Shown here piece by piece: positions 9,207-46,385 of a stretch of DNA of 64,000 nucleotides. Source of the DNA: Thermoanaerobaculia bacterium (GTDB lineage: Bacteria > Acidobacteriota > Thermoanaerobaculia > UBA5066 > Gp7-AA6); contig DASXAG010000110.1 of assembly GCA_036406835.1 (NCBI GenBank), positions 156 through 64,155 of the forward strand, in the 5' to 3' direction. The translations under genes were made by a program, and so were the position numbers. The notes beneath the pieces were generated by a model. It made no database searches, was not told the DNA's origin, and saw only the letters and a program-made list of their open reading frames with translations. Each line of letters opens with the position of its first letter. Positions within the stretch are counted from its first letter, which is position 1.

Positions 9207-11855
<2,649 letters not shown>

Positions 11856-11876: not shown

Positions 11877-12935
11877 CTAGAACCGGCGCGCGTAGCTCGC
11901 GAGGAGGAGATAGGACGCGAACGACGCGCCGATCTTCTGGTTCATGGAGACGTCGAGCGGGCTGTCCAGCTTGTTCGCATACGCGCGGATCGGAACGCTC
12001 AGCGAGGCCATGTTGTCGCCGATCGTCCAGGTCAATCCCGGCTCCACGTACACGACGTAACCGGGCCGGCGCCAGTAGAGATCGCCGCCGCCGATCACGT
12101 CGCGCACGGTCACGCCGTTGATGCGGCCGCCGAGGCTGAGCGCGAATTCGCCCGCCCAGGGCAGCAGGTAGGCCGCGCCGATTCGGCCGGAGTACGTGTC
12201 GGGGACCGAGCGGAGAACTCCGAAGTTGAGCACGCCGGTGTGCTCCTCGAGGGTCAATCCGTAGTAGCCGGACGCGTATGCGTAGAGCGGACCCTCGAGG
12301 TGCGCCGTGCCCTGCGCGCGCAGGATGATCTCCCACCCGCCCGTGCCGAGCTGGGCGGACTCGTCGATCGGACTGTTGCCGAGTCCGGGCTGATCCTTCT
12401 CGACATTGTCATTCCCGGTCGGCGCCTTGAATCCCAGACCGACCGAACCGGTGACCCGTGTCGGTTTCGCCGGGTCCGACAGCCAGTATTCGGCCTGAAG
12501 CGTCACATCGCCGAGCCCCGACGCCCGGTAGTCGTAGACCTGATACCCGGCCGGCGCGTCCGCGCTCGCGAGGGCCACCTTCGCGCCGCCGATCGCGAAA
12601 GGGACCGTCAGGTCGAGACTCAGCCGGTCGCTGACGCCGTACAGGACGTCGAGGTTGATGAGGCTGACGATGCGGTGCGGCGGAATCCCGGGCACGGGCG
12701 CCTGCGAATCGTCCCGCTGATCGCCCACGAAGAAGTCGTCGGCGTTGCCGTACTGGTACGAGAGCTGAGCCTGCCAGCGCCTCGCCGGGAGGAACACGTC
12801 GTTCTGGACGCCCAGACTGGGCGCCGTGAAGCGGATCGGCTGTCAGCCCTGTCCGGAGGCCGTGCGGACGGCGAGCAGGACGAGGGCCGCGATGAGCAGC
12901 CCCAAGCGTCTCGAGGTGCCGAACCTGCGCTGAAT
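11877..12935 (-). CDS. Outer-membrane beta-barrel transporter-like protein with in-frame TGA (candidate selenocysteine at 12843-12845)
   Basis: The frame continues upstream of the listed ORF through QG-TGA-QPIRF into a signal peptide. A SECIS-like hairpin lies at 12807-12825. GLGD, GFKAPTG and RRPGY motifs and a C-terminal RF are present. The start is uncertain (ATT 12935 or TTG 12905). Confidence 0.7.
12807..12825 (-). promoter_or_regulatory. Candidate SECIS element
   Basis: GGCGCCCA-GTC-TGGGCGTC stem-loop beginning 18 nt after the UGA; it shares GTCTGGG with the FDH SECIS. Confidence 0.65.
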
Positions 12936-12959
12936 GACGCTCTCCTCGTTTCTCCTATC

Positions 12960-13628
12960 CTACGGCTCAGCGCCCGTCTCGGTCGAGTAGGGAAGCGCGA
13001 ACGCCCGGTAGGTGAGGGCAACATGGCCGACGAGGATGCGGGCGCCGTCGGCGAGGGGGATCGAGGCCTCGACTTTCCGGTCGTCCACGCGGGTGCCGTT
13101 CTTGCTGCCGAGGTCCTCGATCGCGGCGCTTCCGTCCGTCACCACGATGCGCGCGTGGCGGCGCGAGACGCTCGCATGGTCGACGAAGAGGCCGACTCCC
13201 GGATCTCTTCCGATGAGCGTCTCGCCGGAGGGAAGCTCCGTGCGCTTGTCGCCGTGCAGGATCCAGCAGGACCACTTGCGGACCGAGCCGCGGACCGTGC
13301 CGGAACGAAGATCGCCCTGCTCCTCCCGCGCCTCGCCGCAGAACGCGTAGCCGAACCCGTGAACGGTTCGTACGAAGAGCGGGTCTCGCGCCTGATCGCC
13401 GATGGCGCCGCGGAGCTCGACGAGGAGGCTCGTCAGCGTGGCGTCCGAGACGAACGTTCCGGGCCAGAGCCTCTCGTGAATCTGGCTCTTCGAGACGGCC
13501 CGCGGCCGGTTTTCGAGGAGCAGCTCGAGAAGCTGGAAGGCCTTGGGTTGGATATGGACGACCTCACTGCGGACGGACAGCTGCCGCGTCTCTGAGTCGA
13601 GCAGGCACTCTCCAAATCGGATCCGCAT
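12960..13628 (-). CDS. Winged helix-turn-helix (OmpR/CadC-type) plus FHA domain transcriptional regulator
   Basis: N-terminal wHTH (LLELLLENRP...LRGAIGD...VRTVHGFGYAF) and FHA motifs (IGRD, SRRHA, DLGSKNGT). Confidence 0.9.
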   Translation of the reverse strand: MRIRFGECLLDSETRQLSVRSEVVHIQPKAFQLLELLLENRPRAVSKSQIHERLWPGTFVSDATLTSLLVELRGAIGDQARDPLFVRTVHGFGYAFCGEAREEQGDLRSGTVRGSVRKWSCWILHGDKRTELPSGETLIGRDPGVGLFVDHASVSRRHARIVVTDGSAAIEDLGSKNGTRVDDRKVEASIPLADGARILVGHVALTYRAFALPYSTETGAEP

Positions 13629-13781
13629 CGATTTCGCCTGGAGCCTTGCAGCGAATTATGGACCGGTTCGCTGGCCGCCCGGTTCAAACCCAGCGATTTT
13701 CAAGGGTCCTTCCCACGACTCGGTCCGCGCCCGAGCACTAGCGTCCGTGGCGTGGACGGGCCAATCCAAGAGGAGGACAAG

Positions 13782-16700
13782 ATGTTCCGCAAGGCGATTC
13801 GTCAGATCTGGATCCTCGGCGTCCTGTTGGCGATTCCGGCGTTTCTGCGCGGCGGCGTGAACACCTGGACGGGCGGCGATGCGACCTCGGCGGCCGAGAC
13901 GTTCAGCGTGGTCGCCGCGGACCCGACCGATCCCTACGTGGTGTACGGGTCGTTCGGCCACGACCTCCATCGGAGCCGCGATGGCGGCCGCACGTGGGAG
14001 CGGCTCCGATCCTTCGGTCCGATCTCGGCGATCCTGGTGCTCCCGGCGTCGCCCTCGACGATCTACGCCGTAGGCTACGACGCCTTCGGATCATCCGGTG
14101 TCTTCCGGAGCACGGACTCCGGGGACAACTGGACCAACGTCCTCGAAGCCCCGGTGTACTCGCTCGCCAGTAGTCCGACGGACGCCTCGGTCGTCTTCGC
14201 GGGAGGATGGTCCAGGATCTACAAGTCGACGGACTCCGGGGACCATTGGTCCTTCGTCTCGTTTCAAGGCGTGATCACCAGCCTCGTGATCAATCCCAAG
14301 AACCCCTCGACTCTCTATGCGGGCGCGGACGCGGACCTCAGCTACGGCTACTTCTGGGGCGCCTTCGGGAAGAGCGAGGACGGAGGAGCGAGTTGGAGCA
14401 ATCTCACGCCCGCAACCGTCCGGAGTGTTCCCGCCCTCGGGATCGACGCCGGCGCGAGCGCGACGCTGTATGCCGCGCGCTTCCAGACCGGGGCTCCGGC
14501 CGGCGCCGACCCCGTTTTCGCCGAGCCCACCGTTCCCTGGAGCGTCGTTCGCTCGGAGGATGGCGGGGTCACGTGGAGCTTGCCGGGCACGGGGCTCCCC
14601 GAGGTCAAGGTCCAGTCTCTGGCGACGGATCCGCGGATCTCCGGGACGCTTTATGCGGGAACGGACGTCGGCGTCTACCGCAGCCGCGACGGCGGCCGCA
14701 GCTGGACTCCGTTCGGCCTGGCCGGACTTCCGATCATTTCGCTGGCCATCGACGGTAACGGGACCCGCCTGCACGCGGGGACGTCGACGCAGGGCATCTA
14801 CGACTTCGAGATCGCGAGCGGGCCTCTCGACGTCGCCGCGGGACCCGCGGGCGGGAGTCGATTCCTCTCGTGGAACACCGACCGGCTCTCGGTCGCGGCG
14901 CTCGACGCGTCCGGACATTCGACGGTGGGACCGACGAGTGATGCATCGGAGACCTGGAGGGCGACGGCGATCGCGTCGGACGGAGGCGACCGGGCGCACG
15001 TTCTCTGGCATTGCACCGACGGGCGCTCGGCGCTCGAGATCGTCGGACGGTCCGGACGCGAGTCCGTGAAGGTGTTCGCGGCGGAAGCCGGGTGGATGCC
15101 CGGCGACGTCTCGGTGCGCTCCGGCGGGAAGACGAGCCTGCTGTGGACGCATGCCGACGGAAGGATGCGGATCGCGACGATCGACTCCTCCGGCGGCGCG
15201 GTGGTCGGCCCGGAGTATGGGCCCGCCTTCGGCTGGTCCGCCGTGGCCATTGCGGACGATTTCGCCGGTACGACGCGAGTGCTCTGGCGGTCGAGCGACG
15301 GACGGTCGTCCCTCTCGCTCCACCGGGACGGCGAGATGCTCTCGTTCCTGGGCTGGCCGGCCGATCCGGGCTGGTCGGTCGAAGACATCGCCGTGGGAGC
15401 CGATGGACGGACGCGGCTGCTTCGAACCTCGCCGGACGACTCGGCCGAGGTGTCGATCGTCGAACCGGACGGCACGCGGACTTCGCCCACGACCTACGCC
15501 TCGCCCGGATTCACGCCTCGAAGGATCGCGGCGGGCGCGGACGGTCTCACGCGGCTTCTCTTCAGCGGGGATGAGGGAAGCGGCGACCTCGTCGTTCTCG
15601 CCGCCGACAACACGCTCACCGCGCGGCATGCGATCCCCTCGGCGAATGCTGCGACCGTCGTCGTCACGACGGTGTCGGAGCTCGAGGCCGCGCTCGTTCC
15701 GGCCAACGCGGGAGCCCAGATCGTCGTACGTGCGGGCGACTACGAGATCGCCAATCCCCTGACGGTCCCGGACCGCGCAATCCTTGCGGGTGAGGGCGTC
15801 ATGACCCTCGACGAGTCGAAGCTGCCGGCCGGCATCGCGCCATCGGGGAGGACGGTGATCCGCGCCGCGGCCGGACTCGCGGGCGACATCCTGACCCTCG
15901 GCAACGGGTCCGTGATCCGAAGTCTCGTGATCGAGGACGCGGAGGGCCGGGCGGCCGGGAATCCCGTCGCCGTGGTCTCGCGAGACGCCGGCGATCGCGT
16001 CACCGCGCGGATCCTGGACTGCGAGATCGTCAACCCGAATCCGTCGGGGATCGCGCCGCAGGGCCCCACCGGGCGCGGCCTGGTCGTCTGGACGCGCAAC
16101 CCGAACCTGGGCGAGGATCCGCCGCCGCACGAGGGCGCCCGTCTGCGCGTGCAGATGACGCGCTCGATCGTGCGCTCGCCGGCGGCGGCCATCGGCGTCT
16201 TCTCCATCAACTTCGCCTCGCACGCCGCGATCGACCTCGACCTCGACGGCTGCGTGATCGGCGGTGGACTCACGACGGCCGGCGGCGTCAGCCGCCCCGA
16301 TGCCGTGACGGGCGCGGTCCTGAACGTCGCGTCCCGCCGGAACCTGTACCGCTCCGACAGCCCCGATCCGACGCCTCAGGGCTGGAATCTGCAGGGCGGA
16401 ACGAGTGCTCCCATTCCCGGTCTCGCGTCGCAGGCGTCGACCTCCAACACGCTGCGTGTTCACTCCAGGGACGACCGGATCGAGGGCTTCGCGAACGGGA
16501 TCTTCGCCACGGGTGCGACGCGGTCGAATCCCCTCTCGGAACCGAGCTCGTCGAACGGGATCGACCTGACTCTCCAGGGCCTGCGCCTGCAGACGGCGGC
16601 GGCCGATCTCACGCTCTTCGGCGCGACGACGTTCGTCGAGGGCGTCTCGGCGGGGGATGACAACGGCGTGCGCGTCGTGATGCGCCAGTCGACCGGCAGC

Positions 16701-16850
16701 GGAGCCCGCGCCAACGTGTACGCGAACTCGGCGGGCGACCTGGGTACCGGCAATCGTCTCGAGTTTGCCGGCAGCGCGACCGCGTTCGCTCAGACCAACG
16801 AGGCCATCGACCCGGCGCCGCCGGCGGAGTTCTTCACGTCGGGAAACTGA
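13782..16850 (+). CDS. Large secreted mosaic protein (Asp-box propeller, second propeller, beta-helix-like C-terminus)
   Basis: GAGGAGG Shine-Dalgarno, signal peptide, S.DGG..W repeats, AIAVGADG.TR repeats and a C-terminal domain starting VTTVSELEAAL...VRAGDY. Confidence 0.75.
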   Translation: MFRKAIRQIWILGVLLAIPAFLRGGVNTWTGGDATSAAETFSVVAADPTDPYVVYGSFGHDLHRSRDGGRTWERLRSFGPISAILVLPASPSTIYAVGYDAFGSSGVFRSTDSGDNWTNVLEAPVYSLASSPTDASVVFAGGWSRIYKSTDSGDHWSFVSFQGVITSLVINPKNPSTLYAGADADLSYGYFWGAFGKSEDGGASWSNLTPATVRSVPALGIDAGASATLYAARFQTGAPAGADPVFAEPTVPWSVVRSEDGGVTWSLPGTGLPEVKVQSLATDPRISGTLYAGTDVGVYRSRDGGRSWTPFGLAGLPIISLAIDGNGTRLHAGTSTQGIYDFEIASGPLDVAAGPAGGSRFLSWNTDRLSVAALDASGHSTVGPTSDASETWRATAIASDGGDRAHVLWHCTDGRSALEIVGRSGRESVKVFAAEAGWMPGDVSVRSGGKTSLLWTHADGRMRIATIDSSGGAVVGPEYGPAFGWSAVAIADDFAGTTRVLWRSSDGRSSLSLHRDGEMLSFLGWPADPGWSVEDIAVGADGRTRLLRTSPDDSAEVSIVEPDGTRTSPTTYASPGFTPRRIAAGADGLTRLLFSGDEGSGDLVVLAADNTLTARHAIPSANAATVVVTTVSELEAALVPANAGAQIVVRAGDYEIANPLTVPDRAILAGEGVMTLDESKLPAGIAPSGRTVIRAAAGLAGDILTLGNGSVIRSLVIEDAEGRAAGNPVAVVSRDAGDRVTARILDCEIVNPNPSGIAPQGPTGRGLVVWTRNPNLGEDPPPHEGARLRVQMTRSIVRSPAAAIGVFSINFASHAAIDLDLDGCVIGGGLTTAGGVSRPDAVTGAVLNVASRRNLYRSDSPDPTPQGWNLQGGTSAPIPGLASQASTSNTLRVHSRDDRIEGFANGIFATGATRSNPLSEPSSSNGIDLTLQGLRLQTAAADLTLFGATTFVEGVSAGDDNGVRVVMRQSTGSGARANVYANSAGDLGTGNRLEFAGSATAFAQTNEAIDPAPPAEFFTSGN

Positions 16851-42876: not shown

Positions 42877-42967
<91 letters not shown>

Positions 42968-43178: not shown

Positions 43179-46100
43179 ATGAGGATGGATGACAACCCGA
43201 ACTCTTCTCAGCCGCAGCCGCACCCCTTGACCGGCGTCAATCGCCGGGACCTCTTCAAGCTGGGCCTGCGGGGGAGCGCCGGCCTCGCGCTCGGCGGCCT
43301 GTTCGACGTCGCGGCGGCCCGGGCCGCGACCCGCGAGATGAAGCTCGCGGAGATCAACGAGTTCACGACGTCCTGCAACTTCTGTTCGTGCGGCTGCGGC
43401 ATGATCGCCGCGGTCCGCGACGGCAAGCTGATCAAGATGGAGGGCGACTACGACCACATCGTCAGCCGCGGCTCGCTGTGCGTCAAGGGCATCTCGATGT
43501 TCGCGACGCACGCGTCGCCGAACCGCCTGACGAAGCCGCTCTACCGGGCGCCCGGCAGCGATCACTGGGAAGAGATGGAGTGGAAGGACGCGGCCGAGAA
43601 GATCGCGCGGAAGATCAAGAAGGTCCGCGACGAGAACTGGATCGCGACCGAGAAGCTCGTGGACAAGACCCACGCCGCCAACAAGGACGCGATCGGAAGG
43701 GAAGCCGACGCGAAGCCTCCGGAGGCGCTGGGGACGGACGTCCCCGTGAATCGCACGGACGCGATCGCGTTCCTCGGCGGCGCCCAGAACACCAACGAGG
43801 AGTGCTACATCTTCCAGAAGGCCAGCCGGCTGCTCGGCATCCCGTGGGTCGAGCACCAGGCCCGACTTTGACACAGCCCCACGGTCCCCGGTCTGGGGGC
43901 CGCGTTCGGGCGGGGCGCGATGACGAACCACTGGGCGGACATGCAGAACGCCAAGTGTTTCCTGATCGAGGGGAGCAACGTCGCCGAGAACCATCCGATG
44001 GCCTTCAAGTGGATCCGCAAGGCCCAGGAGAACGGCGCGAAGATCATCCACGTCGACCCCCGGTTCACGCGCACGTCGGCGACCGCCGACACGTACGCGC
44101 GCATCCGCCCGGGCACGGACGCCGCGTTCCTCAACACGATGATCAACCACATCCTCGTCAACAAGCTCTACGACGAGGACTTCGTCACGACCCACACGAA
44201 CGCGCTCTTCCTGCTCCAGCCCGACTTCGGCTTCCAGGACGGGCTCTTCTCCGGCTGGGACGAGGAGAAGCACGCCTACGACACGAAGTCGTGGGGCTAT
44301 CAGCTGGACGGCACCGGCCGCCCGAAGAAGGCCACGAGCCTCGATGACCCGCACTGCGTCTTCACGGCGCTGAAGACCTTCGTCTCTCGGTACACGCCCG
44401 AGACCGGCGCGAAGATCACCGGCGTCCCGGCGCAGCAGATCACGTCGATCGCCGAGACGTTCGCGAAGAACCGGCCCGGCACGATCCTCTACGCGCTCGG
44501 GATGACGCAGCACACGACCGGCGTCCAGGGAATCCGCGGCTTCACGATTCTCCAGCAGCTCCTCGGCAACCTCGGCAAGCCCGGCAGCGGCGTGAACGCG
44601 CTGCGCGGCGAGCCCAACGTGCAGGGCGCCTGCGACATGGGCGTGCTGAACAACTACCTGCCGGGCTACATGGACTATCCCGCGGCCACGGAGCCCACGC
44701 TCGAGGCGTACACCCGGAAGAACGGGACCGGCGACCGCCGGTTCCTCGTCAACATGCTCAAGGCGTTCTACGGGGACAACGCGACGCCCGAGAACGACTT
44801 CTGCTACGCGTGGCTGCCGAAGAAGAGCCCGTCGAAGAACTACGGCACGCTCCCGATCTTCCAGGATGCGCTCGCGGGCAAGCTGAAGCTGCTCTGGATC
44901 GTCGGGCAGAACCCGGCGGTCACGACGCCCAACCTGAACCTGACGTTCGCGGGGCTCGACAAGCTCGACACGCTGGTCGTCCACGAGATCTGGGAGACGG
45001 AGACGGCGAAGTTCTGGAAGCGTCCGGGTGCGGATCCGAAGTCGATCCAGACGGAGGTCTTCCTCCTGCCCGCGGCCTTCTTCATGGAGAAGAACGGCAC
45101 CATCACGAATTCGGGCGGACTCATCCAGTGGCGCCACGCCGCGGTCAAGCCGCCGGGCCGGGCGCTGCCGGACGGCGAGGTCGTCGACTACATCTTCCGC
45201 CGCGTGCGGGACCTCCTGCACGAGTCGCGCGATCCCAAGGACGATCCGGTCAAGAAGGCGGCGTGGACCTACCTCTCCGCCGAGGACGTGCTCAAGGAGA
45301 TGAACGGCTTCGCGCTCAAGGACCTCCCGGAGTCGAACCTCAAGGCCGGCGATCTCGTGACCAAGGTGGCCGACCTCAAGCCCGACGGCTCGACGTCCTC
45401 CGGCGCGTGGCTTTACGCGGGCATCTTCGCCGGCGGGAAGAACCTCTCGAAGCGCCGCGACAATCGGACGGATCCGGGGGACCTGGGCATCTATCCCGGC
45501 TTCGCGTGGACCTGGCCCAACAACATGCGCGTCCTCTACAACCGGGCCTCCTGCGACCGAAACGGGAAGCCGTACCCGGGCAGCAAGCCCATCGTCTGGT
45601 GGGACGAGAAGGCCGGTAAGTGGACGGGATACGACGTGCCCGACGTTCCCAAGGCGACCGACGGCCCGAGCACCCCCAACGGCGTCCGCGCGTTCCACAT
45701 GAACGCGGAAGGCGTGGGGCGTCTCTTCGCGGCCGTGTACAAGGACCCCGACGACAAGGCCGACAACGCCCAGCGCGACAGCCCGATCCCCCGCGACGTC
45801 GGCTACGTCCCGAAGGACGGTCCGATGCCCGAGATGTACGAGCCCGTCGAGAGCCCGGTCGACAACATCCTCCACCCGAAGGTCCGGACGAATCCGCTGC
45901 TCAAGTACCCGAGCAACAAGGAACATCAGCCGATCGGCACGGCCGACAAGTTCCCGTACGTGCTCATGACCTCCACGGTCGCCGAGCACTGGTGCGGCGG
46001 ATCGACGACGCGCAACATCCCCTGGCTCAACGAGCTCGTCCCCGAGCCCATGGTCGAGATCCCGCCGGCGCTCGGGCAGAAGCTCGGGGTGAAGTCGGGC

Positions 46101-46385
46101 GACTGGGTCAAGGTCTCCTCCGCGCGCGGCGAGCTCACCGTGAAGGCCCTCGTGACGCCGCGCATGAAGCCCCTGACGGTGGACGGCAAGGAGGTCACGA
46201 TCGTCTGGATGCCCTACAACTGGGGCTTCCAGGGGCTGTCTCCGGGCGCCAGCGTCAATCACCTCACGATCGACGCGGCGGACCCGGGCGCCGGGACGCA
46301 GGAGACGAAGGCGTGCCTCGTGAACGTCGCCAAGTCGAGCAAGCCGGGAAGCGGCCGGTCCGAATCGCAAGGGAGGAAGGCATGA
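43179..46385 (+). CDS. fdnG: Selenocysteine-containing formate dehydrogenase alpha subunit (Tat-exported; TGA 43869-43871 = Sec)
   Basis: NRRDLFK Tat motif, CNFCSCGC and HQARL-TGA-HSPTVPGLG...FGRGAMTNHW; the two listed ORFs are in the same frame across the TGA. Confidence 0.93.
43883..43901 (+). promoter_or_regulatory. SECIS element of FDH
   Basis: GGTCCCC-GGTCT-GGGGGCC hairpin 11 nt after the UGA, similar to the E. coli fdhF arrangement. Confidence 0.85.

Follow-up and report, generated by a model that had tools for sequence, protein, structure and literature searches.

Does an in-frame TGA close to the start of a gene end that gene, or is it read as selenocysteine (Sec)? The question is raised by a locus at positions 11877 to 12935 of a 64,000-nucleotide stretch of DNA from a Thermoanaerobaculia bacterium (Acidobacteriota; assembly GCA_036406835.1, contig DASXAG010000110.1, positions 156 to 64,155), referred to as a whole as the window. 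The 306-residue open reading frame (ORF) listed at this locus, starting at a GTG at 12797, is only the tail of a longer minus-strand frame, which reads ...SVIQRRFGTSRRLGLLIAALVLLAVRTASG-QG-TGA(12845..12843)-QPIRFTAPSLGVQNDVFLP... and then stays open to a TAG at 11879..11877. An earlier reading of the letters alone (the sequence-only reading) had proposed this upstream extension through QG-TGA, and a new selenoprotein family of outer-membrane barrels with Sec as residue 3 of the mature chain. The extension was confirmed, with a signal peptide in frame with the 306-residue ORF. Considering the evidence presented below, we conclude that the "stop" codon near the gene start is almost certainly read as Sec. 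The existence of the gene together with its Sec reading is highly probable, and for the best explanation as a whole, i.e., one intact gene for an exported selenoprotein with the putative function outlined further on, we give a probability of roughly 0.85.

Reading frame and signal peptide

Read through the TGA, the stretch 11877..12935 would encode a signal peptide, Q-G-Sec and an outer-membrane barrel resembling COG4313 and FapF, with the C-terminal end ...ASYARRF. At its upstream end the frame reads GAGGAG-6 nt-ATT CAG CGC AGG ..., which corresponds to (I/M)QRRFGTSRRLGLLIAALVLLAVRTASG-QG-TGA-QPIRFTAPSLGVQNDVFLP. We take the ATT at 12935 as the probable start, because it is aligned with the ATG of the relative L023 behind the same GAGGAG and because the two closest relatives (L011 and L013) have ATC at this codon; a TTG at 12903-12905 is the alternative. 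A weak start combined with a Sec codon in the clade of the window may lower expression or make it selenium-dependent.

Among 88 distinct sequences of the family, the residues in front of the invariant Gln follow the (-3,-1) rule, with A, S, T or V at position -3 in 86 and A, G or S at position -1 in all 88; position -2 is variable and often Phe. Downstream of this site, Q-G-[U/C]-x-P-[IVL]-R-F is invariant. Cleavage by signal peptidase I before the invariant Gln is thereby strongly supported, and the predicted mature N-terminus is Gln-Gly-Sec-Gln-Pro-Ile-Arg-Phe. Since the (-3,-1) site directly precedes the Gln, Sec would be residue 3 of the mature chain, as had been proposed from the letters, and the clean signal-peptidase site in these sequences fits that placement.

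Conservation of the TGA codon

The 182 bases around the TGA are identical in three independent Joint Genome Institute (JGI) metagenome contigs (L032-L034), and Logan contigs from four soil runs show no difference from the window sequence at this locus. A scan of species-representative genomes revealed 20 related loci, nearly all of them in metagenome-assembled genomes (MAGs) of Acidobacteriota/Thermoanaerobaculia and one in a genome binned as Krumholzibacteriia. TGA stands at the same codon in 20/20, down to about 49% identity, and all of them read signal peptide-...PASGQG-TGA-QP[IVF]RF[TM][AEG]PSLG[VL]QN. A scan of soil metagenomes (JGI), for which a smaller alignment (A5) and two search patterns were used, gave more than 512 relatives. 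The codon was readable in 79 of the best 80 loci and is TGA in 43, TGC in 29 and TGT in 7 (36 Cys), a Sec-to-Cys ratio of 43:36 that is, if anything, biased to Cys because one of the two patterns contained Cys. In these loci and in the 88 distinct sequences, TGA alternates exclusively with Cys codons and never with Ser or Trp codons. In total, 58 distinct TGA-form sequences were obtained, with the downstream frame intact.

These results bear directly on the possibility that the TGA terminates translation, so that the barrel is dead or misassembled as a consequence of pseudogene formation, a nonsense mutation or an assembly error. The window copy does lack a canonical start codon, and a few MAG copies (L021, L024 and L025) carry frameshifts or internal stops, both of which would fit a decaying gene. 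However, seven independent assemblies or runs give one and the same sequence, and the same TGA codon is found in 58 distinct sequences that span more than one substitution per site while conserving the downstream frame, which leaves this explanation with a close to negligible probability. The TGA and its hairpin (described below) are thus not unique to this assembly, a condition under which the sequence-only reading would have failed; with 20/20 MAG loci, 43/79 metagenome loci and 58 distinct TGA sequences with the hairpin core, the further TGA-plus-hairpin members that it had envisaged do exist.

Some copies differ in arrangement or integrity. On the 35.6-kb contig JBBRFL010000034.1, two paralogous Sec-barrel genes (L014 and L026) lie about 12 kb apart, each with its own TGA and its own hairpin and apparently with a large, kinase-sized neighbor. 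L021, L024 and L025 have match lengths that are not divisible by three or contain a stop within the frame (L025, residue 159), owing either to indels in the assembly or to decay of the copy; all three retain the TGA and the hairpin.

A SECIS-type hairpin downstream of the TGA

Sec insertion in bacteria is directed by a selenocysteine insertion sequence (SECIS), and a hairpin of this type, GGCGCCCA-GUC-UGGGCGUC (GGCGCCCA/GTC/TGGGCGTC in DNA form, at 12825..12807), follows the TGA. Its stem is separated from the UGA by 17 nt and its loop by 25 nt, and the apex is CCC-AGUCU-GGG. A free energy of about -13 kcal/mol was calculated (-12.6 for the stem alone, -13.7 when flanking bases are included). 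The constraints published for bacterial SECIS (bSECIS) elements ask for 3-9 nt in the apical loop, with G[G/U] in an N1-G-[G/U]-N-N2 pattern, for 4 bp or more in the upper stem, for a distance of 16-37 nt from the UGA and for an energy of -7.5 kcal/mol or lower (PMC13188914 Fig. 2A). With A-GUC-U, 8 bp, 25 nt and -12.6 to -13.7 kcal/mol, the hairpin in the window lies within all of these limits, in line with the SECIS role first suggested for it. It resembles the Escherichia coli fdhF-type in-ORF SECIS (Zhang and Gladyshev consensus, via PMC13188914) in its N1-G-U-N-N2 loop closed by a pair, an upper stem of 7-8 bp, 25 nt from UGA to loop and an energy of -7.5 kcal/mol or lower; in contrast, its loop has only 3 nt if the A-U pair closes, and its spacing is 6 nt longer than that of the formate dehydrogenase SECIS of the same window.

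The distribution of the hairpin follows that of the TGA. The core CCC-NGU-NUG-G is present at a fixed offset in 58/58 distinct TGA forms vs 1/34 forms with TGC or TGT (TGY), a contrast with Fisher p = 3e-24, not corrected for phylogeny. A strict bSECIS search allowing no bulge was passed by 39/58 TGA forms and 3/34 TGY forms. In the Cys forms the peptide is altered (P-V-N-L-G, P-N-F-G) or the Ser codon AGC is used instead. Among 21 orthologs, the pair 45/57 is G-C in 14, A-U in 4 and G-U in 3 and is never broken, both columns being third codon positions, and the pair 44/58 alternates among C-G, A-U and G-C. The observed covariation score is reached by 0/500 shuffles, and pairing falls from 91% to at most 54% in shifted registers. 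Codon choice points in the same direction, with Pro11 being CCC in 19/19 sequences vs 31% of the Pro codons elsewhere in these genes, and Ser12 being AGT in 19/19 vs 5.7% of the Ser codons elsewhere; in no other stretch of 11 conserved codons is synonymous diversity as low. Other subfamilies make an equivalent apex differently, e.g., CUGCCC-GGUCU-GGGCAG, which has the loop of the formate dehydrogenase SECIS in the window, and one subfamily has a bulged A in the hairpin.

A scan of the window at the Rfam gathering thresholds returned tRNA only and no match to a bacterial SECIS family. As a separate observation, the Logan unitigs of three soil runs are interrupted precisely at the SECIS region (12801-12830), where the word depth approximately doubles, consistent with a 30-mer common to several family members or strains in the same soil.

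Indications of Sec decoding in the genome

The window also contains a gene for the alpha subunit of formate dehydrogenase-N (FdnG), whose Sec-TGA at 43869-43871 is codon 231 (U in EHQARLUHSPTV). The corresponding SECIS hairpin, GGTCCCC-GGTCT-GGGGGCC, is located at 43883..43901, 11 nt after its TGA. Both this hairpin and that of the barrel gene contain GUCUGGG and their apices are alike; the positions of the two hairpins, the shared GUCUGGG and the 6-nt-longer distance from the UGA in the barrel gene (17 vs 11 nt), all of which had been read from the letters, proved correct. A canonical Sec-type FdnG in the window is indirect evidence that this genome decodes Sec. Genes for a 4Fe-4S subunit and a membrane subunit apparently lie downstream of FdnG. 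FdnG itself terminates at an ordinary TGA, which is therefore not a sense codon in general here; on this ground, and given the G+C content of 70%, a genome-wide change of the code to TGA as sense was rejected.

A further possibility is that the UGA is read through without Sec, either by an opal-suppressing allo-tRNA (Ser), by a SelB-dependent selC*-type tRNA-Cys or by near-cognate Trp or Cys insertion. Allo-tRNAs in Acidobacteria may act as nonsense suppressors, and selC* tRNA-Cys(UCA) occurs in other anaerobes (PMC5389517). On the other hand, selC* has not been reported from Acidobacteria (PMC5389517), and the hairpin fits the Sec-specific bSECIS model and resembles the FdnG SECIS. Besides, the alternation of the TGA with Cys codons only, never with Ser or Trp, the use of TGA as the ordinary stop of FdnG and the presence of a Sec-type formate dehydrogenase in the same window all make readthrough without Sec very unlikely.

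Several results have to be set against a Sec reading of the TGA. At the expected start, the window copy has no ATG, GTG or TTG, and the start taken here is the non-canonical ATT. Six-frame motif scans within the window gave no match to SelA, SelB or SelD, tRNA scans found no tRNA-Sec in the window or in 26 loci, and none of the RNA-seq runs holds the barrel locus. The tRNA at 42877-42966, just upstream of FdnG, is an ordinary tRNA-Ser (UGA anticodon). The stability of the hairpin relative to shuffled sequence is not significant (z = -0.76, range -0.3 to -1.7), and folding energy was dropped as evidence because it is no better than chance in a sequence of 70% G+C. Also, the peptide P-S-L-G is present in some Cys forms, so that part of the nucleotide conservation of the hairpin is at the protein level. 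The significance of the hairpin rests on conservation, covariation and the TGA-versus-Cys contrast, and by these measures it behaves as a SECIS.

Cysteine homologs and evolution of the family

An exhaustive HMMER search gave 605 cluster representatives at E <= 1e-3. In distant full-length homologs (30-42% identity), a signal peptide leads into AQG-C-[MEV]-P-[IL]-R-F, so the QGC start of similar barrels, which the sequence-only reading had put forward, is correct; Cys is aligned with the TGA in these homologs, and 36 loci have TGC or TGT there. Only 6 columns of the 59-sequence alignment (A4) are invariant, and the Cys/Sec column is among them. The Sec forms fall into the subfamilies U-QPIRF (that of the window), U-MPVRF, U-PPIRF, U-APVRF and U-EPIRF. 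These results strongly support a large soil family in which position 3 is predicted to be Sec in roughly one half of the members sampled and Cys in the other.

In a maximum-likelihood tree of 94 distinct proteins (60 Sec, 34 Cys), built with the N-terminal columns left out, three changes between the Sec and Cys states suffice. Sec forms lie on both sides of the deepest split, and the Cys clades fall inside a Sec grade, which makes the "Cys-to-Sec" direction that had been suggested for this residue doubtful. L065 (2501-3469), at the base of the large Cys clade, has the Cys codon TGT and retains the hairpin core as CCC AGT TTG GG, apparently a remnant of a recent Sec-to-Cys replacement.

The truncation of these genes by annotation pipelines, also anticipated from the letters, was seen throughout. 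In a word-indexed search of a database of 5.8 billion proteins, nearly all of the 120 homologs listed have 250-330 residues and start just after the TGA. The 20/20 homologs that were read begin at MGVQNEPF, LGVQN or MRFTAPSLG, and gene callers therefore cut each of them at the same place; the homologs looked up are named only "hypothetical protein". Such starts could also be genuine, with a leader peptide that ends at the UGA, a separately started barrel (from the GTG at 12797 in the window, or from an ATG directly after the TGA in other subfamilies) and the hairpin as a regulatory or coupling element. Gene callers do place starts just downstream, and many subfamilies read TGA-ATG. However, the signal peptide that an outer-membrane barrel needs is encoded before the TGA, few parts of the family are conserved as well as the stretch from the TGA to the called starts (QPIRFTAPS), and the Cys forms are continuous. 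Because these also read C-M-P, the Met after the TGA is ancestral sequence and not a start. Two separate products are thus highly improbable, and one continuous selenoprotein remains the preferred reading.

Structure of the predicted protein and related barrels

The AlphaFold2 model, based on the 59-sequence alignment, is a barrel with a mean predicted local distance difference test (pLDDT) score of 92.5 and a predicted template modeling score of 0.89. The top Foldseek matches are FapF (5O65/5O67) and Pput2725 (4RL8), with E values of 1e-12 to 1e-10 and template modeling (TM) scores of 0.6-0.73, and FadL and TodX are far weaker matches than these two. The model strongly supports a 12-stranded-type outer-membrane beta-barrel of the COG4313/FapF kind as the predicted product. 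The family has an invariant KAPTG, and 91/94 mature chains have no other Cys, the chain of the window having none.

Profile searches with the read-through protein of the window gave no Pfam match at E <= 1 (the gathering score of PF13557 was not reached) and no match at E <= 1 among 18,950 NCBIfam models, including NF041027 and NF049945. The family is therefore placed solely through its distant Cys homologs and the structure. Some of those homologs reach PF13557 weakly, with 17-26 bits over about 50 residues; one of them (P0133) has 26.1 bits for a cut-off of 22.

Pput2725 of Pseudomonas putida F1 (COG4313; PF13557, Phenol_MetA_deg) is matched by Foldseek at E 1e-11 to 5e-11 and TM 0.60-0.73, and shares with the window family a short N-terminal segment before strand 1, a P-T-G cluster (KAPTG here) and a C-terminal Phe. 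The first ~14 residues of Pput2725 enter the lumen from the periplasmic side, and its conserved P-T-G loop cluster (Pro119-Thr120-Gly121) has been proposed as a lateral gate (PMC4493636). The mature N-terminus Q-G-[Sec/Cys]-x-P-x-R-F of the window family is not described for COG4313 (PMC4493636 does not contain the word "cysteine"), and the neighbors of the family are kinases, regulators and thioredoxins, not genes of aromatic or lipid catabolism. The amyloid secretion channel FapF of Pseudomonas is the best structural match (E = 1.3e-12, TM 0.62-0.70), and some Cys homologs give weak matches to its NCBIfam model NF058560 (13-20 bits, far below the cut-off of 700). In contrast to FapF, the window family has no nearby fap genes and no coiled-coil N-terminal domain, and FapF has no Sec/Cys motif. 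Two other outer-membrane barrels with predicted Sec, the GSU2204 MtrB/PioB-type barrel (NF041027) and the FCYXU TonB-dependent receptor (NF049945), are known (PMC13188914 Table 1), but they are unrelated in fold and size and have their Sec in a CXXCH or FCYXU context, not at mature position 3.

The single Cys-type residue of the mature chain raises the question of whether the same Sec-containing gene product might serve another role, with residue 3 not a plug ligand but a covalent tether, bound through a diselenide or selenosulfide to another protomer or to a partner in the periplasm (e.g., the propeller of the kinase), or a lipoprotein-type +1 residue. FapF is reportedly trimeric. G-[C/U], preceded by small residues, bears a loose resemblance to a lipobox, and a kinase with a periplasmic propeller is encoded in the same operon. 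Against lipid attachment, the residues before C/U are G at -1, an invariant Gln at -2 and G, A or S at -3, where a usual lipobox has Leu-Ala/Ser; Arg is common about 5-8 residues upstream of C/U; and an A/S-x-A/G site for signal peptidase I directly before the invariant Gln fits much better. Moreover, the invariance of Q1, G2, P5, R7 and F8 exceeds what a tether or a lipid anchor would need. A lipoprotein processed by signal peptidase II (lipobox L-[AS]-[GA]-C) was rejected on the residue pattern, and the tether or anchor role as a whole is unlikely.

Gene neighborhood

The barrel gene lies on one strand between a regulator and a Ser/Thr protein kinase (Table 1), and this regulator-barrel-kinase trio recurs in relatives.

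Table 1. Coordinates of the barrel gene, its parts and other features, in positions of the window
Feature	Position	Strand	Remarks
Ser/Thr protein kinase with TolB/PD40-type beta-propeller	9207..11855	-	downstream; starts 21 nt after the barrel stop
Full selenoprotein gene (predicted)	11877..12935	-	351 sense codons + TAG from ATT; supported by frame, orthologs and fold
Rest of mature protein, 321 residues, no Cys	11880..12842	-	conserved segment QPIRFTAPSLG, then beta-barrel
SECIS-type hairpin	12807..12825	-	8 bp, loop closed by A-U (N1-G-U-N-N2)
In-frame TGA, read as Sec; residue 3 of predicted mature chain	12843..12845	-	
Codons for invariant mature Gln1-Gly2	12846..12851	-	Q-G in 88/88 sequences
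Signal peptide, 28 codons	12852..12935	-	ends at predicted signal peptidase I site T-A-S-G / Q
Probable start codon ATT (non-canonical)	12933..12935	-	aligned with ATG of relative L023
Shine-Dalgarno-like GAGGAG	12942..12947	-	6 nt upstream of ATT; also in L023
Regulator with winged-helix (Trans_reg_C) and FHA domains	12960..13628	-	upstream; stop 22 nt before ATT
Formate dehydrogenase-N alpha subunit (FdnG)	43179..46385	+	TIGR01553, 1027.6 bits vs cut-off 814.2

Distinct neighboring proteins were counted by Pfam family, 75 for the Sec forms and 40 for the Cys forms. Pkinase accounts for 20/75 neighbors of Sec forms and 5/40 of Cys forms, Trans_reg_C for 12/75 and FHA for 8/75 of Sec forms, neither of the latter two being among the 25 listed for the Cys forms. 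AhpC-TSA/Redoxin is found in 8/75 neighbors of Sec forms and 14/40 of Cys forms. These Redoxin neighbors are exported ResA/TlpA-like thioredoxins with WCxPC, and their genes lie directly upstream of U-PPIRF barrels and directly downstream of C-EPIRF barrels, i.e., in two independent arrangements.

Other genes were also observed near the barrels. Genes for vanadium-chloroperoxidase-like (VCPO)/PAP2 proteins lie directly upstream of Sec barrels in two subfamilies (L018:1397-2722, L060:979-2253 and also L005:4412-5698). Upstream of C-EPIRF barrels, a protein of about 250 residues with a twin-arginine signal (RRQFIGELAAGAAALAA) has conserved Cys residues in FVGCD and EAGCS (e.g., L050:1018-1776, L068:51-797 and L072:1494-2318) and forms a three-gene cluster with the barrel and the downstream ResA-like gene; it matches nothing in Pfam or in a sequence search of the PDB, and its identity as a DsrE-like sulfur carrier, which was considered, found no support there. 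In the window, a gene at 13752-16850 on the plus strand, divergent from the regulator-barrel-kinase module, encodes a 1032-residue secreted protein with BNR/sortilin-like repeats, and a shorter BNR/sortilin-like gene is located near the same module in L003 and L032.

Proposed mechanism and function

The features described above strongly support recoding of the UGA at 12845-12843 to Sec, which would be carried out by SelB and tRNA-Sec and directed by the in-ORF SECIS 17 nt downstream. For the function, we propose the following scheme. By analogy with Pput2725, the N-terminal segment would lie in or at the periplasmic mouth of the barrel, and its single selenolate or thiolate would act as a reactive or ligand-binding group that captures a thiophilic substrate or forms a mixed Se-S bond. 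Because the chain has no partner Cys, the bonding partner of the Sec/Cys residue would be intermolecular (a substrate, a small thiol, a protomer or a partner protein). In several subfamilies the residue could be kept reduced by the adjacent exported ResA/TlpA-like thioredoxin. In the organism of the window, the barrel would be expressed from the regulator-barrel-kinase module, an operon that suggests a link to envelope signaling, and its state may be coupled to that signaling. This functional sketch, i.e., a lone reactive selenolate on an N-terminal plug linked to thioredoxins and kinase signaling, is tentative.

Some observations count against this sketch. AlphaFold2 models the first 20 residues at a pLDDT of 49-57, with a short helix at 4-8, and because of this confidence of about 50 the placement of Sec in the lumen rests on analogy. 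The subfamily of the window itself has no adjacent ResA-like gene. Kinases are very common in these genomes, and part of the kinase linkage could be background.

A more specific version of the sketch can be formulated as a selenium-based outer-membrane sensor or shuttle, in which an exposed Gln-Gly-Sec on the plug of a COG4313-type channel would capture, covalently or by coordination, an incoming thiophilic species (e.g., an oxidant, a soft metal or metalloid, or sulfane sulfur or selenium). Resetting would fall to a periplasmic ResA/TlpA-like reductase dedicated to this task, and the occupied or oxidized state would be passed on to the Ser/Thr kinase with its periplasmic propeller and from there to the FHA-containing transcription factor. 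We regard this version as rather unlikely.

Implications for selenoproteins and for soil Acidobacteriota

A review of May 2026 lists 119 prokaryotic selenoprotein families, including the outer-membrane barrels NF041027 and NF049945 (PMC13188914). Neither a COG4313/PF13557-type family nor a Q-G-U motif appears in this catalogue, the window family is not among the nine deep-Sep families, and no paper in the collection searched mentions selenocysteine along with COG4313. The proposal of a new selenoprotein family, made from the letters of one locus, is thus supported by a widespread family absent from the 119-family catalogue. On this sequence evidence, it is an uncatalogued selenoprotein family, namely a COG4313-type channel with a conserved chalcogen N-terminus. 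It would be the third structurally distinct outer-membrane barrel among known selenoproteins and the only one with Sec in the first three mature residues.

For the COG4313-type channels, the finding provides a conserved chemical handle: the N-terminal segment carries one invariant nucleophile, which has a thioredoxin as its dedicated partner and is amenable to mutation, labeling and trapping. A family cut at one and the same place also gives the scale of the systematic misannotation of selenoprotein genes, and it offers a rule for correcting annotations, namely signal peptide-QG-TGA-xP[IV]RF plus CCC-NGU-NUG-G. The hosts are soil Acidobacteriota (Thermoanaerobaculia) and related uncultured bacteria, in which selenium biology is barely explored. 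If the sensor or shuttle version were true, it would represent a new kind of trans-envelope signaling that starts at an outer-membrane selenocysteine, and it would imply a substantial, unrecognized selenium demand in soil Acidobacteriota.

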